A stretch of 38,750 nt of DNA from an uncultured Bacilli bacterium (lineage in GTDB: Bacteria; Bacillota_I; Bacilli_A; RF39; UBA660): contig CANRKE010000002.1 in NCBI GenBank assembly GCA_947631135.1, forward strand, positions 1-38,750. Direction: 5' to 3'. The notes beneath the pieces are model-generated. The model was not told where the DNA came from. It saw nothing but the letters and a program-made list of their open reading frames with translations, and made no database searches. Shown piece after piece: positions 2,369 through 29,020 of the stretch; position 1 is the first letter of the stretch, and each line of letters opens with the position of its first letter. Made by a program: the position numbers and the translations under genes.

Positions 2369-4171
2369 ATGGAAAATTATAAATCAAGATTGAATGTTCC
2401 TGATAAATATAAATGGGATTTAAACGATTTTTATAAAAACATTGAAGAATGGGAAGATGAAAGAAAATATTTAAATTCTGAAATGAAAAAACTAGAAGAA
2501 TATAAGGGTAAAATAAACGATCCAAAATTAATGGAAGAATATTTGGATTTATATAATAATATAAAATGTAGATTATTAAATTTATATGCATATGCATATT
2601 TAAATCATGATGTTGATTTAAATAATAGTAAATATATGAAAATATTACAATCAGTAACTAGTATGTATACAGATTTTAATATTGCAATTGCATTTTTTAA
2701 TCCTGAATTATTAGATATTAGTGAAGAAGATTTTAATAATCTATTTATAAAAAATAAAAATCTAATAAAATATAAAAATATGTTAGAAAAAATATATGAA
2801 AAAAAGAAATATACTCTATCTCAAGAAAAGGAACAACTAATTAGTATGTTATCTGAAACTTATGATAGTTATGAAAATATATCAACATCATTATTAAATA
2901 GTGAAAATGATTATGGAAGAATTACTACAAGCGATGGGGATAATGTAGAAATATTGCTTAGTAATCTTAGAAAATTAAAACATGATAAAAGCGATAAAAT
3001 AAGAATGAAAGTAGATAGAAAATTTTATAAAGTAATAGAAAGATATCAAAATACTTATGCTTCATTATTAAATAATTTTGTTAAAAATAATGTTGTTTTA
3101 GCTAAAGTACATAATTATGATTCTGTTTGGGATATGTATTTAAAAGATGCAAAATTAACTAATAAAATTTTTAAATCATTACAAAGTGCTTGTGATAAAA
3201 AAATAGATGTAAATAAAAAGTATTTTTATTTAATGAAAAAAGTTTTAAATTTAAATATTTTACATTCATATGATACATCTTTAGATTGGAATGAATCATC
3301 TTTTGAATATACAATAGAAGAAGCAAATAATATTGTTATTAATTCACTATCTATGTTAGGTAGGGAATATACTGATAAACTTAAAAAAATATTTGATAAT
3401 CATTATATAGATTATTGTGGATATAAAGGTAAAACAAATGGAGGATATAGTTATTCTACATATGATAAGCCATCAAGAATATTGATGAACTTTAGAAATA
3501 CATTTGATGATATACTAACTATCGCACATGAAGCAGGACATAATGTTCATCATCAATTTGTAAATGAAGATAATTATCCATGGTATAGAAGTCAAGCAAT
3601 AATAATATGTGAAGTTGCTTCACTTACTAATGAATTTTTATTAACTAATTATTTTATTAATAATAGTAAATCTAAAAAAGAAAAATTATTAGGACTTGAA
3701 AATATAATTAAGACTTATCAAGCAAACTTTTTTGGAGCTATTATGGAAGGACAATTAGAAGTTAAAATGTATGACCTCGTTGAAAATGGTTCAAGTATTA
3801 CCTCAGATTTTTTAAATAATGAAATAAGTAAATTGTTAAAAAAATTTGAAGGTGATAGTGTTAAAAGAAATAAATACTCAAAGTATATTTGGGCAATTCG
3901 TAAACATTATTATATGGTTTATTATTTACTTAGTTATGCAATAAGTGTATCTGTTGCTTCTAATCTTGCTAAAAGAATAATAAATAAAGAAGAAGGTATT
4001 TTAGATAAATATTATAAATTCTTGAAATGTGGAAGTGATATGGATCCTATTAATGTATTTAAAATTTTAGATGTTGATATAGAAGATGAAGATGTATTTA
4101 TAAAAGGAATTGAATATTTTGATGAACAACTTAATCTATATGAAAAAATTTATAATGATAAGGAGGTATAA
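2369..4171 (+). CDS. M3B family oligoendopeptidase (PepF-like)
   Basis: 600 aa with the zinc motif [11 protein letters not shown] (HExxH). Size and layout are typical of oligoendopeptidase F. The stop lies 2 nt before the dnaJ start. Confidence 0.8.
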
Positions 4172-4173
4172 CG

Positions 4174-5307
4174 ATGAACAAAAGGGATTATTACGAAGTA
4201 TTAGGTGTTGATAAAAATGCTAGCGATAAAGATATTAAAAGTGCTTTTAGACGTCTTGCAAAACAATACCACCCAGATGTAAATAAAGATCCTGGAGCAG
4301 AAGATAAATTTAAAGAGATTCAAGAAGCATATGCAGTGTTATCAGATGAAAATAGAAGAAAACAATATGATCAGTTTGGTCATGCAGCATTCCAAGGTGG
4401 TCCTAGTGCATCTGGTGGATTCTCTGGATTTGATTTTAGTGATTTTGATTTTTCTGATATATTCTCAGATTTGTTTGGTGGAAGTAGTTTTGGATTCAAC
4501 TTTGGTGGTGGAGGATTTACTGGTAGATCTTCTGGAAAAGTACGTGGACGTGATAAAGTAATAAGTATGAATTTGACATTTGAAGAAGCAGTATTTGGGT
4601 GTTCAAAAGATATACAACTAGATATAATGGATACTTGTGATGACTGTGATGGCTTAGGTGGACATGGTGAAGAGAAGTGCGATGAATGTAATGGTCGTGG
4701 TACTATTGAACAACAACAAAGAAGTATATTAGGTACATATATAACACGTAGTACTTGTCCTAAATGTGGAGGTACAGGTAAAACTTATAAGACGACCTGC
4801 TCTACTTGTCATGGAAAAGGTAAAATACGCAAAAACAAAGAAATTACTGTTAAAGTTCCTGCCGGTGTTGATACTGGTAATCAATTAAGATTAGCATCTA
4901 AAGGTGAAGCTGGTTCTAATGGTGGACCTAATGGAGATTTATATATAGAATTTAATGTTAAATCTCATCCAATTTATGAACGTGAAGATGATAATATATA
5001 TCTAACTTTACCACTTAATATTGTTGATGCAACATTAGGATGTAAAAAAGAAGTACCAACATTATATGGAAATATCAACTTAGTTATTCCTGCTGGTAGT
5101 CAAAGTGGTGATAAACATAGATTACGTGGTAAAGGTGTTGAAAATGTCAGCACTAAAAGAAAAGGTGATATGTATATAATACTTGATGTTAATATTCCTG
5201 AAAAATTATCTAGAGATCAAAAGAAATTATTTGAACAACTTAAGAAAACTGAACTTTCTACTCCTAAAATCAAAAAGTATAACGAATTTTTAGATAAAAA
5301 TAGATAA
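4174..5307 (+). CDS. dnaJ: Co-chaperone DnaJ (Hsp40)
   Basis: J-domain (YYEVLGV...QYHPDVNKD), a Gly/Phe-rich region and four CxxCxG zinc-finger repeats (CDDCDG, CDECNG, CPKCGG, CSTCHG). Confidence 0.97.
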
Positions 5308-5480: not shown

Positions 5481-5523
5481 GATTAAATAATTATTAATAA
5501 TAAATAATAGGAGAGTGATTGTT

Positions 5524-6981
5524 ATGGAAGACCAATCTAATAAGAAAATAGGTATAATGATAGGTGCGATAATATTAGTGTCAATATTAATTGTTGGAAT
5601 AACTTATGCATATTTATCAGCTAATAAAAAAGCAAATGATCGAACAGTAAAGGCAGGAACATTATTAATAGAGTACGAAGATGATAATGTAAATTCAGTA
5701 AAACTAGAAAATATAGTACCAATAGATGACAGTGATATGATGACTAATGCAAATAAAATAGCATTTAAAGTAAATAATAAAGGTACAGCTTTAGCTTATG
5801 TTGATATTAGTATAACAAACATAAGTTTACCAGATGCGCTTAAAAGTACAGAATTTAAATGGGCTTTATATTCAAATAATGAAAAAGTGAATTCAGGTAA
5901 TTTTTCAAATGTTGAAGATGAGGGAATGTCACTTGTAAAAAATCAGGAGATAGCATCAAAAGCAAGTAAAAATTATGAATTATATATTTGGATAACTGAA
6001 ACAGATCTAGATCAATCAAGTATGATGGAAAAAACATTTTCAGGTAAAATAACAATAAATGGACACCAATATAAAGTAGAACAAAAAGAATTATTATCTG
6101 ATATAATAAAAAATAATAATTCACCAATAGATACAAAAGAACCAGATTTTACAACAACAGCAGAAACAAATGAAGGTTTAATTGAAGGTGAAGATTCAGA
6201 TGGAAAAACATATTATTTTAGAGGTAATGTTAATAATAATTATGTAAAAATAGAAGGATTAAAATGGACAGATGATGATGGAAATTATCACAGAAAAGAT
6301 GAAGACATGTTATTTAGGATAGTTAGAATCAATGGAGATAATTCTATCAGAATAATAGCAAATGGTTCTATTGGAACATGTAAATTCAATGAAAATATGG
6401 ATATGGAACAATATGTAGGATATACATTTAATAATAATAAAGTGTGTACAAAGGATGCAAAATGTGATGGAACAGAGGGAACACCATCAAAAATAAAAAC
6501 TTACTTAGATGATTGGTATAAAAATAACATTGAAGAAAAATATGATTCACTATTTACAACATCAAGATATTGTAATGACACATCGGGTACAACAAATTCA
6601 TATGGAGCAAAAGATAGATTGGAAACAAAAAATACACCAACATTTATATGTCCAGATACAGAAAAAATGTATGGTGGAGAATATAATTTAAAAATTGGTT
6701 TATTGTCAGCAGATGAAGCAGTGTTTGCTGGTGGAAAATATAATACTATAAATCAAAACTATTATTTGGTGGGAAGTAGTAACATGAGATGGTTCCTTTC
6801 ACCTAATCGCTTTGATGGTAGTGCATTTGCATTTGAATTATACTTTAATAATCTTATTAATAGTGATTATGTTCATAATGAATATGCTTCAGTTCCAGTC
6901 TTAAATTTACGTTCTGATACATCATTTACAGAAGGAAATGGAGAAAAAAACACACCATATTTGGTACGAGTTAAAAATTAG
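5524..6981 (+). CDS. Secreted or surface protein, paralog A: SipW/TasA-like signal and N-domain plus conserved C-terminal module
   Basis: RBS AGGAGAG lies 8 nt before the ATG at 5524 (the listed GTG at 5515 overlaps the RBS). The N-terminal anchor KIGIMIGAIILVSILIVGITYAYLSA resembles SipW-cognate signals (TasA ...GGGTWAAFND). It is followed by AGTLLIEYEDD..V.L.NI, as in the first strands of TasA. The C-terminal part carries YYFRG, RINGD, RYCNDTS, LLSADE, FAGG, W.LSP and VPVLNLR. Confidence 0.85.
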   Translation: MEDQSNKKIGIMIGAIILVSILIVGITYAYLSANKKANDRTVKAGTLLIEYEDDNVNSVKLENIVPIDDSDMMTNANKIAFKVNNKGTALAYVDISITNISLPDALKSTEFKWALYSNNEKVNSGNFSNVEDEGMSLVKNQEIASKASKNYELYIWITETDLDQSSMMEKTFSGKITINGHQYKVEQKELLSDIIKNNNSPIDTKEPDFTTTAETNEGLIEGEDSDGKTYYFRGNVNNNYVKIEGLKWTDDDGNYHRKDEDMLFRIVRINGDNSIRIIANGSIGTCKFNENMDMEQYVGYTFNNNKVCTKDAKCDGTEGTPSKIKTYLDDWYKNNIEEKYDSLFTTSRYCNDTSGTTNSYGAKDRLETKNTPTFICPDTEKMYGGEYNLKIGLLSADEAVFAGGKYNTINQNYYLVGSSNMRWFLSPNRFDGSAFAFELYFNNLINSDYVHNEYASVPVLNLRSDTSFTEGNGEKNTPYLVRVKN

Positions 6982-7022
6982 CAAAATATTTTGTCCAAAT
7001 ATATTGCACTTTCTCCAAAATT

Positions 7023-7159
7023 TTGATAGTATTGAATTGTAATAAAAAGGTAGGTCCTCTCCATAAAAGAACATGTACAAACATATGTTCGTGTTGGGGG
7101 GGGTCACTATTATTCTTATAAGGCCAATTCACTTACCTTGAATAGGTAGGTGATTTTTT
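7023..7159 (+). promoter_or_regulatory. Conserved structured 5' leader, copy B
   Basis: Near-identical to copy A. A helix pairs 7053..7062 (GGTCCTCTCC) with 7096..7105 (GGGGGGGGTC). An inner hairpin lies at 7069..7090, AAGGTAGGT at 7047..7055 and a terminator at 7129..7159. Confidence 0.6.
7129..7159 (+). terminator. Intrinsic terminator closing leader copy B
   Basis: TCACTTACC-TTGAATA-GGTAGGTGA forms 9 bp including one G-U pair, followed by TTTTTT. Confidence 0.65.
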
Positions 7160-7219
7160 GTATTGTTAAAATAATCAATGATATTTATTAAATAAAAAAA
7201 GTAGGAGAGTGAAAAAAAG

Positions 7220-8854
7220 ATGGAAAAGGAAAATAATAAGAAAAAAATAGGAATATTAATAAGTGCGATAATATTAGTATTAGTTCTAATAGTTGGAATA
7301 ACATATGCATATCTATCATCACATCTAAATACTGATAATCGTGATTTGCAAGCAGGAACATTACTAATAGAATATGAAGATGATAATGCAAATACAGTAA
7401 GATTAGATAATATACAATCAATATATGATAAAGATATAAAAGAAAAAGCTAGTAAGATAAGTTTTAAAGTAAACAATACAGGAACAGCTAAAGCTTATGT
7501 TGATATTAATATAACAGATATTAGTTTACCTCCTGAACTGGCAGATTTAGAATTTAAGTGGACATTATATTCAGGTGAAGAAAAAATAAATAATGGAAAC
7601 TTTAGAAATGTATTAGATAATAAAATATTACTTATAAATAATCAAGAAATTGCTAGTAAAGGAAATAAAATTTATGAATTATATATATGGATAAGTGAGA
7701 CAGGAAAAGACCAATCAGATATGATGAATAAAACTTTTTCTGGAAAAATAACAGTAGTAGGGCATCAAAAAAAACAATCAGAATTATTATCTAAAGTAAT
7801 TAAAAACAATAATCCATTACAAATAAATGATCCAAATTTTAACAAGGTTGCTGTTGCACAAGATTATTATGATATATTAACTGAAAGTACAAATCCTAAA
7901 CAATCTGAAGCAACTGTAGAAAACGGATTGTATGCAGGTGAAGATGCTGATGGAGAAACATATTATTTTAGAGGTAATGTAGAAGATAATTATTTAAAGA
8001 TTGAAGGTTTAAAATGGCCTAGTGATTCAAAACCAGCATATCTATTATCAAAAGCTAATATTATCTTTTTTTCAATTGGAAGTGTAGAAACAAATTGTGA
8101 TAATAACTATTCTACTTATGGTTATATATCAAATGAAGAATGTAAAGCAGATATAATGGAAGTAGGAGCACAGCCAGGTGAAGATATGTTATTTAGAATA
8201 ACGAGAATTAATGGAGATGGAACAATCAGAATAATAGCAGATGGTTCTGTCGCAAATTATCCATTTAATCAAAACCATAATTTAGAAAAATACGTAGGAT
8301 ATACATATGACAACAGTAAACCAAACATTCAAAATGGGAATCCTTCAAATATTAAAAGATATTTGGATAATTGGTATAAAAAAAACATGACTGATTATGA
8401 TAAAATACTAGCAAGTACAAGATATTGTAATGATACATCAGTATACAATATAAATGGAAATTCTATATATTATGGTGCATATAATAGAATAAGAAAAACA
8501 ATAACTCCGACATATATATGTCCTAATACAAATAAAACTTATGGTGGAGAATATGATTTAAAGATAGGACTATTATCAGCAGATGAAATTGTATTTGCTG
8601 GTGGAAATTACGGATTATCTAACAAAAGTTATTATTTATATGGAAGTATTGCATATAAATGGCTTATGTCACCATATTATTACAGTGGTAGTAATACTTC
8701 TGAATTTGGCACTCATATAGGAGGTAACATAGATTATAATTATAATTACAATAATGAAGCTGTTGTACCTGTCCTAAACATACGTGCAGATACACCTTTT
8801 ACAGAAGGTAATGGAACTAAAGATAATCCCTATTTGGTACGAACTGAAAATTAG
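7220..8854 (+). CDS. Secreted or surface protein, paralog B (same family as 5524..6981)
   Basis: RBS AGGAGAG lies about 10 nt before the ATG. It has the same signal (KIGILISAIILVLVLIVGITYAYLSS), N-domain and C-terminal motifs as paralog A. It also carries an extra Cys-containing insert of about 50 aa that is shared with paralog C. Confidence 0.9.
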   Translation: MEKENNKKKIGILISAIILVLVLIVGITYAYLSSHLNTDNRDLQAGTLLIEYEDDNANTVRLDNIQSIYDKDIKEKASKISFKVNNTGTAKAYVDINITDISLPPELADLEFKWTLYSGEEKINNGNFRNVLDNKILLINNQEIASKGNKIYELYIWISETGKDQSDMMNKTFSGKITVVGHQKKQSELLSKVIKNNNPLQINDPNFNKVAVAQDYYDILTESTNPKQSEATVENGLYAGEDADGETYYFRGNVEDNYLKIEGLKWPSDSKPAYLLSKANIIFFSIGSVETNCDNNYSTYGYISNEECKADIMEVGAQPGEDMLFRITRINGDGTIRIIADGSVANYPFNQNHNLEKYVGYTYDNSKPNIQNGNPSNIKRYLDNWYKKNMTDYDKILASTRYCNDTSVYNINGNSIYYGAYNRIRKTITPTYICPNTNKTYGGEYDLKIGLLSADEIVFAGGNYGLSNKSYYLYGSIAYKWLMSPYYYSGSNTSEFGTHIGGNIDYNYNYNNEAVVPVLNIRADTPFTEGNGTKDNPYLVRTEN

Positions 8855-20322: not shown

Positions 20323-20353
20323 GAATTTGTATATGTAGGAAGGATTGATTTAC

Positions 20354-22597
20354 ATGAATGAATGGAAAGATTTTAATGAAGGAGTTTGGACTAAAGAAAT
20401 AAACGTAAGTGATTTCATTCAAAAAAACTATAAAAATTATGATGGATCAGATGGAGGTGACGGATCTAGTTTTCTAGTGGGTGTTACTGATAGAACTAAA
20501 AAAGTATGGGACAAGTGTACTGATCTGTTAAAAGAAGAATTAAAAAAACATGTATTAGATATAGATGTTGATCATATGTCTGGAATAAATTCATTTGATG
20601 CTGGTTACATAGATAAAGATAATGAAGTAATAGTAGGATTACAAACAGATGCTCCTCTTAAGAGAATAGTAAATCCATACGGTGGTATACGTATGGTTTA
20701 TCAAGAGTTAGATGCTTATGGATATAAATTAAATAAAGATGTAGATAAATATTTTAATGAATTTAGAAAGACTCATAATCAAGGTGTATTTGATGCATAT
20801 TCAAATGATATTAGAAAAGCAAGACATGTTGGGTTACTAACAGGATTACCTGATGCATATGGTCGTGGTAGAATTATTGGTGACTATAGAAGAGTTGCAC
20901 TTTATGGTATAGATTATTTAATGGAATGCAAGAAAAACGAATGGGACAACATATATCTTGGTGATATGACTGAAGATTTAATTAGAACACGTGAAGAGTT
21001 ATCTATGCAATATCGTGCTTTACAAGATATAAAAGATATGGCACTAAAATATGGATATGATATGTCAAAGCCAGCTAAAAATTCACGTGAAGCAGTTCAA
21101 TGGTTATATTTTGGATATTTAGCTGCAGTAAAAGAAAATAATGGGGCTGCAATGAGCTTAGGTCGTGTTGACGCATTTCTAGATATATACTTTGAAAGAG
21201 ATTTAAAAAATGGTGTAATAACAGAAGAAGAAATTCAAGAATTAATTGATCAATTTGTAATTAAATTAAGATTAGTACGTCATTTAAGAACACCTGAATA
21301 TGATGAATTATTCTCAGGAGATCCAACTTGGGTTACATGTTCAATAGGTGGTATTAATAAAGAAGGAAAATCTATGGTCACTAAAACTTCTTATAGAATT
21401 TTACATACTCTAACTAACCTAGATCCAGCACCAGAACCTAATATGACTGTTTTATGGAGTACAAAACTACCTGAGGCATTTAAAAAATATTGTGCAAAAA
21501 TGAGTATTGCAACTGATGCTATTCAATATGAAAATGATGATTTGATGAGAGAAGTATATGGTGATGATTATGCGATCGCTTGTTGTGTATCTGCAATGAG
21601 AGTAGGACGTGATATGCAATTCTTTGGTGCTCGTTGTAATTTAGCTAAATCATTATTATATTCAATTAATGGTGGTATTGATGAAGTAAAATTTGAAAAA
21701 GTAATTGATGGATTTGAAATAATGGACGATGAAATACTAGACTATGAAAAGGTTAAAAAATCATATTTTAAAATGCTTGAACATGTTGCAGAAATATATT
21801 CTAATGCAATGAATGTTATACATTATATGCATGATAAATATGCTTATGAAGCTGGACAAATGGCACTTCATGATACCGATGTACATAGATATATGGCTTA
21901 TGGAGTTGCTGGATTATCTGTTGCATGTGATTCTTTATCAGCAATTAAATATGCTAAAGTAAAACCAATTAGAAATGAAGATGGTATAGCTATTGATTTT
22001 GAAGTTATTGGTGATTATCCTAAATATGGTAATGATGATGATAGAGTAGATAATATTGCTAAAGAAATATTAGAAAAGATGCATTCAGAACTTGAAAAAC
22101 ATAAAACATATAGAAATGCTGAAGTTACAATGTCAGTACTTACTATAACTTCTAATGTAGTATATGGATCAAAGACTGGTGCAACACCTGATGGAAGAAA
22201 AGCTGGTGTTCCATTTGCTCCTGGTGCTAATCCAATGCATGAAAGAGATAAAAGTGGAGCAATTGCAAGTTTAAATTCTGTTGCAAAACTTGATTATGCA
22301 AATTGTTGTAAAGATGGTATATCTAATACTTTCTCAATAGTACCTGCTACATTAGGTGAAGAGGATAGTGAAAGAATTAAAAATTTAGTAACACTTATGG
22401 ATGGATATTTTGTTCAAGGTGCACATCACTTAAATGTAAATGTATTAAATCGTGAAACTTTAATAGATGCTATGAATAATCCAGATAAATATCCATTACT
22501 AACAATAAGAGTATCTGGTTATGCAGTAAGATTCAATAGATTAACAAAGAAACAACAACAAGAAGTAATATCTAGAACATTCCATGAAAAGATGTAA
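20354..22597 (+). CDS. pflB: Formate C-acetyltransferase (pyruvate formate-lyase)
   Basis: About 747 aa with the glycyl-radical motif [11 protein letters not shown] and the active-site segment [20 protein letters not shown] lies 9 nt before the ATG at 20354. Confidence 0.95.
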
Positions 22598-22601
22598 TTA
22601 A

Positions 22602-23300
22602 ATGGTTGGATATATAAATAAAATTGAATCTATGGGATTAGTTGATGGACCTGGTATTCGTACAGTTATATTTATGCAAGGATGTAATTTAAGATGTATA
22701 TTCTGTCATAATCCCGAATCATGGAATAAAAATATTAACGAAAAATATACTCCAATTGAATTAGTAAATAAAATTAAAAGATTTAAACCTTACTATGGTA
22801 GAGATGGTGGAGTAACATTTTCTGGTGGAGAACCACTTGTACAAACTGAATTTTTAATTGAAACATGTAAATTATTAAAAGAAGAAGGTATTAATATTTG
22901 CCTTGATACTGCAGGCGTTGGATGTACAAATTATGAAATACTTGATTATGTTGATTTAATTATACTTGATATTAAACATATAACTAAAGAAGGATATAAA
23001 TATATTACTGGGTTGGAATTAGATGAATTTAATACATTTTTGAGTGAAGTAATTAAAAGAAATAAAAAATTATGGTTAAGACAAGTTATAGTTCCTGGAA
23101 TAAATGATAATATAGAATATATAAATAAATTGAAAGAATATACTAAAGTTATTCCTAATGTATTAAAAAAAGAATTATTACCTTATCATACAATGGGTGT
23201 ATCAAAATATAAAGGTCTTAATATTCCATATAGATTACTAAATGTTGATAGTATGGATAAATTAAAATGTGAAGAGTTAGAAAAAATATGGAACAACTAA
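22602..23300 (+). CDS. pflA: Pyruvate formate-lyase activating enzyme (radical SAM)
   Basis: ESMGLVDGPGIRTVIFMQGCNLRCIFCHNP (CxxxCxxC) and GGVTFSGGEPL are present. The gene is adjacent to pflB. Confidence 0.95.
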   Translation: MVGYINKIESMGLVDGPGIRTVIFMQGCNLRCIFCHNPESWNKNINEKYTPIELVNKIKRFKPYYGRDGGVTFSGGEPLVQTEFLIETCKLLKEEGINICLDTAGVGCTNYEILDYVDLIILDIKHITKEGYKYITGLELDEFNTFLSEVIKRNKKLWLRQVIVPGINDNIEYINKLKEYTKVIPNVLKKELLPYHTMGVSKYKGLNIPYRLLNVDSMDKLKCEELEKIWNN

Positions 23301-23376: not shown

Positions 23377-23518
23377 TTGATAATATGAGATTGTAATAAA
23401 AAAGGTAGGTCCTCTCCATAAAAGAACATGTGCAAACATATGTTCGATATGGGGGGGGTCATAAAATTTTTATAAGACCTTAAAAGCTTACCTTAAATAA
23501 GGTAGGTGTTTTATTTGG
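23377..23518 (+). promoter_or_regulatory. Conserved structured 5' leader, copy C (terminal hairpin overlaps the SD and start of the downstream gene)
   Basis: A helix pairs 23408..23417 with 23451..23460 (the G8 run) and an inner hairpin lies at 23424..23445. The terminal hairpin is CTTACCTT (23487..23494)-AAAT-AAGGTAGG (23499..23506), followed by GTTTTATTT. The 8-mer AAGGTAGG is also present at 23402..23409. Confidence 0.6.
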
Positions 23519-25107
23519 ATAAGAATAAAAGAAAGGTAACAACAATAGTAACGACATTAATAGCGATAGTATTACTATTAATAAGTATAACATATGCATA
23601 CATGTCAGCAACAAAAGTAACAACAAAGAATTCAGTACAAGCAGGAACATTATTAATTAATTATGAAGATGATAAATTAAATACAGTAAATTTAAGTAAT
23701 ATACAACCAATATATGATAAAGATATAAAGACTAAAGCTAATAAAATATCATTTAAAGTAAACAATACAGGAACAGCTAAAGCTTATGTAGATATCAATA
23801 TAACAGATATTAACCTACCTAGTGAGTTAGCAGATTTAGAGTTTAAATGGGCACTATATTCTGGTGATGAAAAAATAAGTAATGGTAATTTCAGAAATGT
23901 ATTAGATAATAAATTACTTCTAATCAACAACGAAGAAATAGAATCAACTAAAAATAAAAGTTATGATTTATATATCTGGATAAGTGAATCAGAATTAGAT
24001 CAATCAGATATGATGAATAAAACATTTTCTGCTAAAATAACAGTAGTAGGACATCAAAATAAACAAGCAGAATTACTTTCAAAAGTAATTAAAGATAATA
24101 ATGAACCTAGTACACAAAAACCTGATTTCAACAAAACATCAGAAACAGATGACGGATTAATACAAGATATAGATAAAGATGGAGAAACTTATTATTTTAG
24201 AGGAGCAGTAGAATACAATTATTTAAAAATAGAAGGATTAACATGGCCTGATGATTCAGAGACAGGATATCTAATACCTGGTAGTAAATTATTGATAGTA
24301 TTTCCTACAAAAAATGAGGCAGAAAATACTTGTAATTCATCATATTCACAATATGGATATCAATCAATAGATGAATGTAAAAATGAGATAAAGGAAGTAG
24401 GAGCACAACCAGGTGAATATATGTTATTTAGGGTAGTAAGAATTAATGGGGATAGAACTATTAGAATTATAGCTGATGGATCAATTGGTAAGAGTTCGTT
24501 TAATGTACCATCTAATGAAGAAAAGTATGTAGGGTATACATATAATAACAGTAAACCAAATATTCAAGATGGTGATTCTTCTACAATAAAGGAATATTTA
24601 GATAATTGGTATGACGAAAATATGACAAATTATAATAAGATATTCGCATATACAAGATATTGTAACGATACAACAACAGGACATATAAATAGTAGTGGAT
24701 ATTTATATTATGGAGCATATGATAGATTAGATGTCGATAATAATGGTGCTAATCCACAACCTACATATATATGTCCAAACACAGATAAATTATATGGAGG
24801 AGAATATGATTTAAAAATAGGATTATTATCAGCAGATGAAGTATCATTTGCAGGTGGAAAATATAATTCAATTAATCAAAATTATTATCTATTTGGTAAG
24901 AGTGGTTGGAGATTTCTTGGATCACCTAATTATTTTACAGGTAGTAATTCTAGTGAGTTTAGTATAAATGGATATGGTGGTTTAGGTATTAATAATATTA
25001 AAAATGAAAATTCAGTTATACCAGTCTTAAATCTACGTGCTGACACACCATTTATACAAGGTGATGGAACAAAGAACTCACCGTACATCGTAAGTGTAAA
25101 TAATTAA
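23515..25107 (+). CDS. Secreted or surface protein, paralog C (same family as 5524..6981 and 7220..8854)
   Basis: Same signal (IAIVLLLISITYAYMSA), N-domain and C-terminal motifs as the other paralogs. The TTG at 23515 lies 6 nt after AAGGTAGGTG and gives MDKNKRK..., matching the N-termini of A and B. The listed GTG at 23506 lies inside the SD. Confidence 0.85.
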   Translation: MDKNKRKVTTIVTTLIAIVLLLISITYAYMSATKVTTKNSVQAGTLLINYEDDKLNTVNLSNIQPIYDKDIKTKANKISFKVNNTGTAKAYVDINITDINLPSELADLEFKWALYSGDEKISNGNFRNVLDNKLLLINNEEIESTKNKSYDLYIWISESELDQSDMMNKTFSAKITVVGHQNKQAELLSKVIKDNNEPSTQKPDFNKTSETDDGLIQDIDKDGETYYFRGAVEYNYLKIEGLTWPDDSETGYLIPGSKLLIVFPTKNEAENTCNSSYSQYGYQSIDECKNEIKEVGAQPGEYMLFRVVRINGDRTIRIIADGSIGKSSFNVPSNEEKYVGYTYNNSKPNIQDGDSSTIKEYLDNWYDENMTNYNKIFAYTRYCNDTTTGHINSSGYLYYGAYDRLDVDNNGANPQPTYICPNTDKLYGGEYDLKIGLLSADEVSFAGGKYNSINQNYYLFGKSGWRFLGSPNYFTGSNSSEFSINGYGGLGINNIKNENSVIPVLNLRADTPFIQGDGTKNSPYIVSVNN

Positions 25108-25119
25108 ATTTATTAAAAT

Positions 25120-25175
25120 AAAAAAAAGATACTGTCTAAAATTAAGTAATTAATTTTAGACAGTACCATTTTTTT
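25120..25175. terminator. Bidirectional intrinsic terminator
   Basis: ACTGTCTAAAATTAA-GTAA-TTAATTTTAGACAGT (25131..25164) is a 15-bp stem flanked by an A-run (25120..25127) and a T-run (25169..25175). It sits between the convergent paralog C gene and the RiPP operon. Confidence 0.8.
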
Positions 25176-26457
25176 AATTACCTTCATTGTTATTTTTTTC
25201 AAGTAATAACTTTAGTAAAGGTTTAACAACAAATCTATTACGTACACAAGGTGTTCTCATAGTATTACTTAAGTTTCTATTATATAAGCATCCTCCTAAA
25301 CAAATAGGAAGAAAAGGGCATTCTTTACACTCTTCAAGTGCATATTTGAAATTATGATATTTTTCGGTATCATTTTTATCTACTGATGAAAAGTCTTGAA
25401 CACAAGCATGGGTAGTACCATCTGGAGCTATAACCACTGCATTTGATTTAGAAGCTAAACACCCATTAAATTTAGCTTTAGGAAATAAATCTTTAAGTGT
25501 AATTTTATTATTTGAATTAAGTAATGCTTTAAAAACATCGTAAAAGAAATCTTCTTTTTCAAAATCTTTAATATAGCTGTCAGCCATTTCATGTTCTGGT
25601 GGGAATAAGTAAGTAGGAAATAAATGAAGATTATCAAATTGCATTAAGTCAGATATAGAATCTAAAATTTTAGAAAAACTATCTTTATTGTGATTATCTA
25701 AATGTATTCTTAAATTAACATATACACCAGATTTTAATAGTTCCAATATTCCATCATGCGTTTTTTTAAAAGCACTTTCTCCATTTAAACTAACATTCTT
25801 TCTACGATTATGTTCTTCTTCTACTCCATCAATAGTAATATGCGCTGATTCTAAATGCCATTTATTAGTCATATGCGATATAAGATTTTTTGTAAGTAAG
25901 GTTCCATTAGTTGTAATTGATGAACTCCAGTTGTTATTTTTTAACTTATTCATGGATATTAACTTATCAATTATTTCATCAATTTTGTTAACACATAACA
26001 ATGGCTCACCACCATACCAATCTAGTACACATTTTGAGTTTTCATCTATATTTTTTGCTAAAAAATCTATAATTTTTTCGTTTGACTCTTTAGTTATGGA
26101 CTTCTTGCAATAATTTTCTTCGTAACAATAAAAACATTTAGCATTACAAGCTGTAGTAGGAATTATAGTAAAGAAATTAAGATTATTTTTTTTAGCAATT
26201 TCGATATTAGAAATAAATTTTTCATACTCATTAATATTATTTGGTACAATAAATCCATTTTCGGCTAGAATATGTTTTTCATCTTCTTTACTGCTTAGCA
26301 TATCATAATCTTCATCTATTATTACTACTGCTGAAGAAGCACTATTAAAAATAGCTTTTTTATTAAATTGACATACCTCAATATTATACATTGATTCTTT
26401 ATAAGGTATATCATCTACCAAATTATACTTGTTTTTACTTTCTCTACATATTTCCAT
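25174..26457 (-). CDS. Radical SAM/SPASM domain peptide-modifying enzyme B
   Basis: Radical SAM motif IIPTTACNAKCFYCYE (CxxxCxxC), plus WYGGEPLL and ITTNGTLL. The C-terminal SPASM Cys pattern reads C-x19-C ... CKECPFLPICLGGC...C. The start lies 2 nt after the methyltransferase stop. Confidence 0.85.
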   Translation of the reverse strand: MEICRESKNKYNLVDDIPYKESMYNIEVCQFNKKAIFNSASSAVVIIDEDYDMLSSKEDEKHILAENGFIVPNNINEYEKFISNIEIAKKNNLNFFTIIPTTACNAKCFYCYEENYCKKSITKESNEKIIDFLAKNIDENSKCVLDWYGGEPLLCVNKIDEIIDKLISMNKLKNNNWSSSITTNGTLLTKNLISHMTNKWHLESAHITIDGVEEEHNRRKNVSLNGESAFKKTHDGILELLKSGVYVNLRIHLDNHNKDSFSKILDSISDLMQFDNLHLFPTYLFPPEHEMADSYIKDFEKEDFFYDVFKALLNSNNKITLKDLFPKAKFNGCLASKSNAVVIAPDGTTHACVQDFSSVDKNDTEKYHNFKYALEECKECPFLPICLGGCLYNRNLSNTMRTPCVRNRFVVKPLLKLLLEKNNNEGN

Positions 26458-27253: not shown

Positions 27254-27284
27254 TATTATACATCTTCTTTCTAAGAGTAACTTT

Positions 27285-28601
27285 CTATAAATTATTCATT
27301 TCATCAGCTGCTCTTTTTATTAAATCATTTATAGCACCCTTAACTGATGTGCAGGCATGATCTTTTCCATAAGTAAATGCTCTATATTTGCAGCCTCCTT
27401 GACATAGAGGAAGTAATTTACAATTATTACATTTTTCATCCTTAATATATGGGTTAGCAAAAACTTTAGATATTTCACTATTTGTTCTACCAGTAAAAAC
27501 GTTACCACTCGCATATTCTTCATGTCCTAATAATCTATGGCAATCAAAAATATTACCTGATGAATCTATTGTAAGCGATGATTTACATCCTCCATAACAA
27601 CTAGTTGGAATAGGTGTTAAATAATATTTTCTTAAAATAGCATCGTATTTTGTTCCTTCTTCAACTCTTTTATCGTAATTTCCAAAACTGCAATAATCTT
27701 TTTCTGCATCTAATAGTTCAATTAAAGGATGTTTTCTTTGATTTTTAAATTCATCTGTAATTGAAGGTATGTCTTTTGAATCAATAGGTGCTAGATAAAC
27801 AAAAAAGTTTTTATCTGATCCAAATCTGTCTTTTAGATAATCAACTGTTTTAATTGCTTTATCATTTTCTAGTGGATTAAAATTAATTCTAATTCTTACG
27901 TTTATATTATTATCCAAACATCTTTGAATATTATTCATTACAAGTTCAAATGGATTATCTATATTATAGTAATTCTTTATTTCATTATATTCATTATATA
28001 ACGCATCAATAGTTATTTGAATAATCTTTACATTCCATTCATTTACTGCTTTTTTAACAATTTCATCGTTTAATAAAGATCCATTTGTTATAATTTTTGA
28101 ATCAAATTTAACTCCATTTTTATGAAGTTTATCAACAATTAATGAAATTATTTTAGGTTCTAAAAGCGGCTCTCCACCAAACCATTGAATGACAAGATGT
28201 TCATCATCATGATTAGCGATAATATAATCTGCTACAGCCTCAGCTGTTTTTTTAGTCATTTTCTTTTGTTTTACACCTTTTTCAAAGCAATAATAACAAC
28301 GTGCATTACAGCCTGTAGTTGGACATATAATATAATAAGTTGGAGAAGTTTTATTTGCTTCCAACGTCATACATCTTAATGATTCCAAATATGAAAGTTC
28401 ATCATAATCATCATCAATTAAAAATCCCATTTCATGCAAAGATGAAACTTCTTCAGGATATTTTTCATAATCATTTTTTTCAAAAATTGACTCGTACATA
28501 TTTTTTTCTAATTCAACCATTGAAGTAGAAAAAGTAGAATAGAGTAAAACTGTATCAGGAGTTTTTCCCTTTTGTGATATTATAAACTTAGATTTTTTCA
28601 T
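27285..28601 (-). CDS. Radical SAM/SPASM domain peptide-modifying enzyme A
   Basis: Radical SAM motif IICPTTGCNARCYYCFE, plus WFGGEPLL and IITNGSLL. The SPASM pattern reads CYGGCKSSLTIDSSGNIFDC ... CNNCKLLPLCQGGCKY...C. About 90 aa precede the cluster motif, which is a possible RRE. RBS AAGGAG lies upstream. Confidence 0.85.
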   Translation of the reverse strand: MKKSKFIISQKGKTPDTVLLYSTFSTSMVELEKNMYESIFEKNDYEKYPEEVSSLHEMGFLIDDDYDELSYLESLRCMTLEANKTSPTYYIICPTTGCNARCYYCFEKGVKQKKMTKKTAEAVADYIIANHDDEHLVIQWFGGEPLLEPKIISLIVDKLHKNGVKFDSKIITNGSLLNDEIVKKAVNEWNVKIIQITIDALYNEYNEIKNYYNIDNPFELVMNNIQRCLDNNINVRIRINFNPLENDKAIKTVDYLKDRFGSDKNFFVYLAPIDSKDIPSITDEFKNQRKHPLIELLDAEKDYCSFGNYDKRVEEGTKYDAILRKYYLTPIPTSCYGGCKSSLTIDSSGNIFDCHRLLGHEEYASGNVFTGRTNSEISKVFANPYIKDEKCNNCKLLPLCQGGCKYRAFTYGKDHACTSVKGAINDLIKRAADEMNNL

Positions 28602-28631
28602 ATATTACTACTCCTTATTATATAAATAAAT

Positions 28632-28663
28632 ATTGTGTTGGTATAAGCACATACCAACACAAT
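28632..28663 (-). terminator. Hairpin between the precursor ORF and enzyme A (attenuator or partial terminator candidate)
   Basis: ATTGTGTTGGTAT-(6 nt)-ATACCAACACAAT is a 13-bp perfect stem. On the minus strand it is followed by ATTTATTTAT. Confidence 0.55.
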
Positions 28664-28696
28664 ATATTGTTTGTTTGTGCCAATTATAATATATAA

Positions 28697-28819
28697 TTAG
28701 CCATCACTACAATGACATAAACAACTACTTGCCATTTCATTAGCTACGAATTTTTCAGAAGCAGCTGTTTCAAGTTCTTTTGAAGCAATTTCTTGAGAAA
28801 CTTCTCTAATTATTTTCAT
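28697..28819 (-). CDS. 40-aa Cys-rich RiPP precursor candidate (not in the supplied ORF track)
   Basis: Hand translation gives MKIIREVSQEIASKELETAASEKFVANEMASSCLCHCSDG*. AAGGAGGTGAAGTT lies immediately before the ATG. The ORF sits between a consensus promoter and the radical SAM genes on the same strand. Confidence 0.75.
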   Translation of the reverse strand: MKIIREVSQEIASKELETAASEKFVANEMASSCLCHCSDG

Positions 28820-28867
28820 AACTTCACCTCCTTGATAAGGTCAATAAATATTTGTCATGACACCTAA

Positions 28868-28896
28868 AGTATAGCAAACACTTTATCATTTGTCAA
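28868..28896 (-). promoter_or_regulatory. Sigma-A-type promoter of the RiPP operon
   Basis: On the minus strand: TTGACA (28896..28891), a 17-nt spacer, then TATACT (28873..28868). This is about 50 nt upstream of the precursor ATG. Confidence 0.75.
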
Positions 28897-28991: not shown

Positions 28992-29020
28992 TTGACATAA
29001 TTTTGTCTTTAATATATAAT
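28992..29020 (+). promoter_or_regulatory. Sigma-A-type promoter for the LiaF-like gene (divergent from the RiPP promoter)
   Basis: TTGACA (28992..28997), a 17-nt spacer, then TATAAT (29015..29020). The implied TSS near 29027 favours the ATG at 29064 over the listed TTG at 29025. Confidence 0.7.

Follow-up and report, generated by a model that had tools for sequence, protein, structure and literature searches.

A conserved 40-residue peptide encoded beside radical SAM/SPASM genes on a Bacilli contig: probable precursor of an undescribed RiPP family

Introduction

On the minus strand of the window, that is the whole stretch of 38,750 nucleotides analysed here, a 40-codon open reading frame (ORF) lies upstream of genes for radical SAM (rSAM)/SPASM proteins. 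What does so short a frame encode, if anything? It could be a chance ORF, a regulatory leader peptide, a metal-binding peptide, or the substrate of the neighbouring enzymes. Systems in which rSAM/SPASM enzymes mature a Cys-containing RiPP are already well known as a kind. What is new at this locus, as reported below, is a precursor family with a strictly C-terminal C-R-x-S-D-G signature, and a module made of an rSAM enzyme and a methyltransferase that is linked to one additional cysteine, Cys37.

Results

Layout of the operon

Features of the region are listed in Table 1. The order in this four-gene operon, entirely on the minus strand, is peptide, read-through hairpin, rSAM/SPASM A (enzyme A), methyltransferase MT2, rSAM/SPASM B (enzyme B) and terminator. 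No protease, exporter, transporter or immunity gene was found within it. An earlier note on this DNA had described a 40-residue ORF with a good ribosome binding site, and its coordinates, RBS, ATG and TAA were all verified; an ORF listing of the window recovers the same ATG frame. The consensus promoter and the hairpin that it had placed on either side of the ORF were confirmed too; the promoter matches at 11 positions of 12 and the position of the hairpin is kept in 16 of 16 loci. The two rSAM/SPASM genes announced downstream of the hairpin are indeed present, but the 264-residue methyltransferase between them had been overlooked.

Table 1. Coordinates of the features of the operon in the window
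Feature	Position	Strand	Remarks
Promoter, sigma-70-type, TTGACA-17-TATACT	28868..28896	(-)	extended -10 TG; 11/12 matches
RBS AAGGAGGTG	28825..28833	(-)	7-nt spacer to ATG; GGAGG type in 20/20 homologous genes
Precursor ORF, 40 codons	28697-28819	(-)	ATG at 28819, MKIIREVSQEIASKELETAASEKFVANEMASSCLCHCSDG, TAA ending 28697
Leader, residues 1-30	28730..28819	(-)	N-terminus MK[IV]I.. and box ..EKFVANE.. conserved
Core, residues 31-40, and TAA stop	28697..28729	(-)	tail ASSCLCHCSDG
Stem-loop, 16 bp	28630..28665	(-)	between precursor gene and rSAM A; z = -3.5 against shuffles
rSAM/SPASM A, 438 aa, core maturase	27285..28601	(-)	CX3CX2C, eight SPASM Cys, predicted RRE-like N-terminal domain
MT2, class-I SAM-dependent methyltransferase, 264 aa	26459..27253	(-)	always paired with rSAM B
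rSAM/SPASM B, 427 aa, accessory maturase	25174..26457	(-)	found only where the peptide has Cys37
Intrinsic terminator, 18-bp stem and T-run	25128..25167	(-)	closes the operon; scores on the plus strand too, for the convergent gene

A second promoter stands back to back with that of the peptide gene. It is a perfect (12/12) sigma-70 consensus, TTGACA-17-TATAAT, at 28992-29020 on the plus strand, and faces a LiaF-like gene listed from 29025, the true start of which is probably further downstream.

The short frame is a gene

Small size alone would make a chance ORF in AT-rich intergenic DNA conceivable. Homologous peptides, 70-83% identical, are already annotated as genes in public assemblies (13 cases), and contig look-ups together with a metagenome scan provided 20 distinct nucleotide versions of the precursor gene. 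Every version has 40 codons and a GGAGG-type RBS, and the stop codon may be TAA, TGA or TAG. Substitutions follow codon position: all third positions were variable (39/39), compared to 24 first and 21 second positions. The pooled pN/pS ratio was 0.25; by segment it fell from 0.41 (residues 2-20) to 0.15 (21-30) and 0.13 (31-40), meaning that the C-terminal core and the neighbouring leader box are the most constrained parts of the precursor. This codon-position pattern and pN/pS, in a frame that is kept in dozens of contigs, refute the chance ORF, the probability of which is negligible. As judged from this comparison of homologous sequences, the precursor ORF is a translated gene under purifying selection.

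A peptide family defined by its C-terminus

The earlier note had also proposed that the ORF is a leader-plus-core RiPP precursor serving the neighbouring rSAM/SPASM enzymes, and had asked whether a small ORF is conserved beside homologous enzymes. It is, for all examined rSAM A homologues of at least 40% identity: beside every one of them, an adjoining peptide of 34-41 residues ends in C-R-[V/I/C]-S-D-G-COOH. The pairing of precursor and rSAM A was found in 35 loci of the close family. Among relatives with an enzyme A 40-46% identical, a small ORF with a like ending was present in L002 (...ACTCRVSDG), L122 (...KCPICRVSDG), L123 (...CSEDCPRCRVSDG, that is ...CPRCRVSDG), L001 (...CSDDCPRCRVSDG, ...CPRCRVSDG) and L005 (...CNPDHCPRCRISDG, ...CPRCRISDG), and in the last three it lies downstream of the enzyme gene. 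No such peptide was seen beside rSAM A homologues of 38% identity or less (L003, L004 and L006). The distant L001, L002 and L005 were among the matches listed in a scan of reference genomes, which used the rSAM A alignment and the generic motifs CNARCYYC and WFGGEPLL and missed close relatives. A profile search among 1.84 billion representative proteins extended the range of cores, for example to CFCCVSDG and CVCRISDG.

In an alignment of 15 divergent peptides, M1, C35, D39 and G40 are the only invariant residues, and S38 is nearly so; in the family of the window peptide the conserved core residues are C33, C35, S38, D39 and G40. On the aligned sequences, the family signature is C-R-x-S-D-G at the extreme C-terminus, preceded at variable spacing by at least one upstream Cys, and the invariant unit is C35-x3-D39-G40-COOH. 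The same comparison shows a short, Cys-free family leader of the form MK[IV]I..., ...EKFVANE.... None of 7 peptides matched a Pfam or NCBIfam model, even at E <= 10. A full-text literature search for the core strings yielded unrelated acronyms only, and no description of the CRxSDG system was found in the literature on ranthipeptides, SPASM proteins and methyltransferases.

Two loci contain tandem precursor genes, with cores STCICRVSDG and SSCLCRVSDG, before a single enzyme A (L081:6493-6789 and L107:1258-1546). In L123 (2378-3769), a different 55-residue peptide (...ARCSCEKGCEGCTSW) and a 367-residue rSAM protein are encoded directly upstream of the CRVSDG pair, so that two RiPP systems stand side by side.

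The C-L-C-H-C motif of the window copy, on which the earlier note had laid stress, does not define the family. The window copy gathers three Cys and one His within five residues, and metal binding is possible for Cys-rich peptides; the earlier note had conceived of a metal site and of a metallophore or cofactor-like product. This reading fails since His36 is unique to the window (all other close relatives have Arg, and two variants Cys), while many members of the family have Val, Ile or Met in place of Cys37. Peptide metallophores are expected to keep their ligands and to come with dedicated maturation and uptake genes; apart from the peptide gene, the four-gene operon consists of two rSAM genes and one methyltransferase gene, the enzymes are of thiol-consuming maturase types, and no MbnB/C-like, TonB receptor or transporter gene is found among them. 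We consider a metal-binding product very unlikely.

Enzymes A, B and MT2

The radical SAM motif CX3CX2C is formed by C98, C102 and C105 in A and by C104, C108 and C111 in B; it is invariant in both enzyme alignments, and both proteins match PF04055. Enzyme A scores 52.8 bits with the SPASM model TIGR04085, for a cut-off of 27. Its SPASM cysteines are C335, 339, 354, 391, 394, 400, 404 and 417, and those of B, all invariant, are C333, 352, 377, 380, 386, 390 and 404, so that the Cys set for two auxiliary clusters (…CX2CX5CX3C…C) is complete in both. AlphaFold2 models of the two enzymes reached a pLDDT of 88 and 90. At the N-terminus of the A model, strands 7-11, 17-22 and 27-32 are followed by helices 33-41, 49-57 and 68-82, and B is analogous. 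This three-strand/three-helix domain is predicted to be RRE-like (PqqD-like) in both proteins.

By sequence, the closest solved structure is CteB (5WGG), with E values of 4e-19 for A and 9e-11 for B. Foldseek also returned CteB as best full-length match for both models, over ~450-480 columns, then TigE, SuiB and anSME; the epimerase EpeE and SkfB are further neighbours by fold or sequence. The best NCBIfam neighbours are all maturases of Cys-containing peptides (TIGR04463, geopeptide, PapB, CefB and Clo7bot). Scores and cut-offs were 158.8/525 for TIGR04463, 134.3/600 for TIGR04334 (Clo7bot), 142.6/400 for TIGR04280, 127.5/600 for NF038107 (CefB) and 89.1/425 for the SCIFF maturase TIGR03974, and the PapB model NF047865 (cut-off 340) gave 134.8 bits with A and 102.3 bits with B. 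With scores of 100-160 bits for the best neighbours, compared to cut-offs of 340-600, A and B are members of no curated maturase family, and the distant members L001 and L123 likewise remain below the curated cut-offs. On sequence and modelled fold, A and B are RRE-rSAM-SPASM proteins nearest to CteB.

Enzyme B belongs to a small rSAM family that hardly occurs outside CRxSDG-type clusters, with ~55 clusters at 42% identity or more, the next relatives being at 32%. In the PDB, MT2 resembles class-I methyltransferases of a generic kind; the RiPP carboxyl-methyltransferase LahSB is found at E 2e-7, too weak a match to assign the methyl acceptor. In a 4.6-kb contig from another sample (L117), peptide and enzyme A are identical to those of the window, and rSAM B is split into ORFs of 169 and 259 residues (3238-4519); coverage was 2.3x, and the split reflects a frameshift or else a faulty assembly.

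Residue 37 follows the accessory genes

Loci of the family were compared for gene content. The invariable pair consists of the peptide and rSAM A. Accessories are MT1, a 270-residue methyltransferase whose start overlaps the end of A, and MT2 with rSAM B, which always travel as an adjacent pair. The architectures recorded were pep-A (L091/92 and L002), pep×2-A-MT1 (L081-86, L107, L108 and L111), pep-A-MT1-MT2-B (most loci), pep-A-MT2-B-MT1 (L115) and pep-A-MT2-B (the window only). A core made of both rSAM genes was considered and rejected, as many loci are devoid of rSAM B. In the window, MT2 starts 31 nt after enzyme A, with no remnant of MT1 in this interval (27254-27284); the window is the sole B-containing cluster seen without MT1, and the sole copy with His36. 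Arg36 as the target of MT1 was also rejected, because L091, L002, L122 and others keep Arg36 in the absence of MT1.

Gene content and peptide sequence go together at one position. Residue 37 is Cys in all 15 distinct loci carrying MT2 (and B), namely the window, L087, L089, L094, L096, L100, L101, L103, L105, L109 and L112-L116, among which L114 and L115 are deep lineages and L116 is an out-family cluster. It is Val or Ile in 8 of the 8 distinct loci without MT2 and B (L081, L107, L091, L002, L122, L123, L001 and L005). L093 is probably a ninth such locus, ambiguous in that only 677 nt follow MT1, and in L112 Cys37 is kept with an apparently truncated B. A 15/0 against 0/8 split corresponds to p ~ 2e-6 (1/C(23,8)) when phylogeny is ignored. 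In a neighbour-joining tree of enzyme A (without support values), Val-type lineages are basal and also nested inside the Cys-type ones, which implies several independent coupled changes. We infer from these sequences that MT2 and B act on Cys37 or require it, enzyme A handling the invariant part of the core.

Other tailoring sets were noted. L122 (5421-7786), a 46%-identity relative, has an acetyltransferase and a 611-residue B12-binding rSAM protein after A, in place of MT1, MT2 and B; these form another tailoring set for a CRVSDG core. The distant relative cluster L116 (2919-9357) encodes a 34-residue peptide, MTIISSVSYEEIEVEICDSENLTLEHCKCCCEDG, ending in HCKCCCEDG, with the register C-x-C-x-C-x-D-G-COOH, along with three rSAM proteins (464, 454 and 391 residues), an adenosine-deaminase-like protein and an MT2-like methyltransferase. 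Identities to the window proteins are 33% for the A-like, 32% for the B-like and 45% for the MT2-like product. Sel1-repeat proteins recur beside the cluster (L087:308-940 and 6281-7741; L115:1291-3555; L116:468-2588), and in L087 one such gene separates enzyme A from the peptide gene.

The hairpin between peptide and enzyme genes

A stem-loop separates the peptide gene from enzyme A in each of the 16 loci scored for it. It is stable and usually U-tailed, and its sequence differs between loci. Rfam gave no match in the window, so the hairpin belongs to no known riboswitch or attenuator family. It is likely a read-through terminator or an mRNA-stabilising element. In lantibiotic operons, enrichment of precursor mRNA by a read-through terminator is well known.

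A short ORF with a Cys-codon-rich end, then a terminator-like hairpin, then biosynthetic genes, is also what would be expected of an attenuator. The small ORF would then be a regulatory leader peptide that senses Cys codons and controls the rSAM operon, rather than a substrate. This reading is contradicted by selection acting at the amino-acid level: purifying selection is strong along the full length of the peptide, and the terminal Asp-Gly is invariant. Moreover, the peptide gene lies downstream of the enzyme in L001, L005 and L123, where attenuation is impossible, tandem precursor copies exist in L081 and L107, and residue 37 co-varies with enzyme content. An attenuator is extremely unlikely.

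Genomic context and hosts

The window has a GC content of ~26% and housekeeping genes for DnaK/DnaJ, pyruvate formate-lyase (PFL) and its activase, RluD, RlmN and a PASTA kinase, which fits a gut bacterium of the low-GC Bacillota. The operon forms an insert of 3.8 kb on the opposite strand; its GC content (25-27%) is like that of its flanks, so that it bears no signature of foreign DNA, and no mobility gene is found near the window's own copy. Just beyond the cluster, PFL (750 aa) and its radical-SAM activase (232 aa), encoded at 20345-23300 on the plus strand, mark an anaerobic host, which fits an oxygen-sensitive rSAM chemistry. Three plus-strand ORFs of 533, 488 and 544 residues (23506-25107, 5515-6981 and 7220-8854) have no Pfam domain. 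The first of them has a signal peptide of the SipW-dependent type (TIGR04088), converges on the RiPP operon and shares its bidirectional terminator.

Relatives come mainly from human-gut metagenomes, and also from Bacilli and Oscillospiraceae MAGs and from Candidatus Scubalenecus merdavium; a single orthologue cluster accounts for 160 indexed blocks of the contig collection. In relatives, mobility genes (integrases, recombinases) or the end of a prophage often border the cluster. Integrases of the phage and rve types, a serine recombinase, a transposase, and Tn916-type Xis/Int accompanied by a PemK toxin were seen as neighbours (L093:311-1444, L081:1-279, L094:4694-5749, L115:10671-13000, L114:7628-8849). 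Two copies are on IMG/VR contigs (L124 and L125); in L125 (1-8000), a tail fibre, an endolysin, two serine integrases and a tyrosine integrase precede pep-A-MT1-MT2-B. The cluster may be cargo of prophages or ICEs.

Discussion

We propose that the 40-residue ORF is the precursor of an undescribed PapB/CteB-like thioether RiPP family, matured by enzyme A with MT2 and B as optional partners, and put the probability of this reading at about 0.7. The promoter would yield peptide mRNA in excess, because the hairpin would terminate or stabilise part of the transcripts, and the enzymes would be expressed by read-through. The RRE-like N-terminal domain of enzyme A would bind the leader. The enzyme would then abstract a hydrogen beside a carboxylate, at Asp39 C-beta and/or Gly40 C-alpha, and join the activated carbon to the thiols of Cys35 and Cys33, giving one or two C-terminal thioether rings.

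The precedent for such a reaction is PapB, which natively forms thioethers between Cys and the C-beta of Asp in C-S-A-N-D (CX3D) motifs, and in vitro joins Cys to the C-alpha of the C-terminal Gly in a leader-CSANG peptide (PMC12373016). The Cys-X3-Asp/Glu motif, as defined in that work (PMC12373016), is present here as C35-x3-D39, invariant in the 15 divergent peptides, and as it is followed by the C-terminal Gly, two acceptor carbons are on offer. In a count over 15 peptides, the number of Cys does not exceed that of the downstream carboxylates in any single-enzyme system, whereas crown clusters containing B have 3 Cys for 2 carboxylates. From the PapB precedent and this count, we propose that Asp39 and Gly40 are linked by A to Cys35 and Cys33, Cys37 being left to B and MT2. 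In the window version, MT2 and enzyme B, with its own predicted RRE-like domain, would carry out an extra modification that needs Cys37. It could be a third cross-link and/or an S- or O-methylation, the supernumerary Cys37 being dealt with by a different, methyl-involving route.

By analogy, thioether formation is the likeliest reaction of enzyme A; it is not established, since SPASM enzymes of the same fold catalyse other reactions, such as C-C bond formation (SuiB), cyclopropane formation (TigE), Cys oxidation (anSME) and epimerisation. The peptide could be a genuine rSAM-RiPP precursor subject to a chemistry other than PapB-like, carboxylate-adjacent thioethers: a sactionine (S to the C-alpha of any residue), anSME-like oxidation of Cys to formylglycine, C-C or C-O cross-links, epimerisation, or C-terminal oxidative decarboxylation. 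SuiB, TigE, anSME, EpeE and SkfB are all among the neighbours of A and B by fold or sequence, and A and B fall far short of the cut-offs of the PapB and SCIFF maturase models. StsB makes Cys-Gly sactionines from a CxCxC donor motif (PMC10288494), and the choice between ranthi and sacti regiochemistry is, according to the PapB paper, driven by the substrate (PMC12373016). Against this, the sole invariant residues of the core are a Cys followed by an Asp (+4) and the C-terminal Gly (+5), both of which bear a carboxylate, this spacing is the donor/acceptor geometry of PapB, and the top-scoring curated relatives are all Cys-peptide maturases. We therefore regard another chemistry as rather unlikely.

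The PapB-like thioether reading has a bolder extension, which we hold to be doubtful. The family would be a new RiPP class, in which two Cys thiols tied to Asp39 C-beta and Gly40 C-alpha make a compact bicyclic C-terminal cage, the C-terminal carboxylate itself serving as the handle for radical cross-linking, and in which the optional methyltransferase/rSAM module transforms the third Cys in a methyl-dependent way not yet described, for instance by S-methylating it and then attacking the added methyl group by a radical reaction. If this is true, nature would have its own version of the 'unnatural' C-terminal macrocyclisation for which PapB was recently used. Should the C-terminal Asp-Gly prove to be the acceptor, the C-terminal thioether macrocyclisation obtained with PapB in vitro would have its first example in nature.

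The precursor and maturase form a recognisable and widespread family of human-gut and rumen bacteria that is absent from curated models. With its very small, sharply conserved core and a minimal two-gene version, it lends itself readily to reconstitution in a heterologous host. Nature switches an extra Cys on and off together with an rSAM enzyme and a methyltransferase, which assigns substrate residues to enzymes ahead of experiments, and the Cys37 module may expose new radical-SAM/methyl chemistry. Integrase and prophage neighbourhoods hint that the trait may be mobile and serve competition or signalling among gut bacteria.

How does the system compare with those already described? The models that score best with A and B (TIGR04463, TIGR04334, TIGR04280 and NF038107) stand for curated but uncharacterised families, and the scores are 120-160 bits compared to cut-offs of 400-600. 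CteA/CteB (SCIFF, thermocellin) shares a short Cys-rich precursor (~45 residues) and a minimal layout of peptide and maturase, without protease or exporter. The SCIFF peptide has six Cys instead of two or three, the acceptor used by CteB is the C-gamma of Thr, and the curated SCIFF peptide model does not match the window peptide. In StsA/StsB, the donor cysteines are likewise spaced C-x-C-x-C and are followed by Gly acceptors (PMC10288494). The acceptor tract of StsA is GxGxG, and StsB is a member of the MftC group, whereas here the third Cys is dispensable and the one Gly is the C-terminus. Ruminococcin C (RumMC1/2) and thuricin CD (TrnC/D) also have two SPASM rSAM genes per operon in a gut or Firmicute RiPP system. 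Their paired enzymes are reported to work on paralogous or partner peptides or in synergy, unlike the present enzyme B, which is optional and tied to one extra Cys and a methyltransferase. In PapA/PapB (freyrasin), as is proposed here, an RRE-rSAM-SPASM maturase acts on a leader-core peptide, and the donor Cys and the Asp of its CX3D motif have their counterpart in the invariant C-x3-D-G-COOH. PapA carries six repeats of the motif and the present peptide a single terminal one; the family described here differs further by its accessory methyltransferase(s) and second rSAM enzyme, and by its hosts, which are gut Bacillota and not Paenibacillus.
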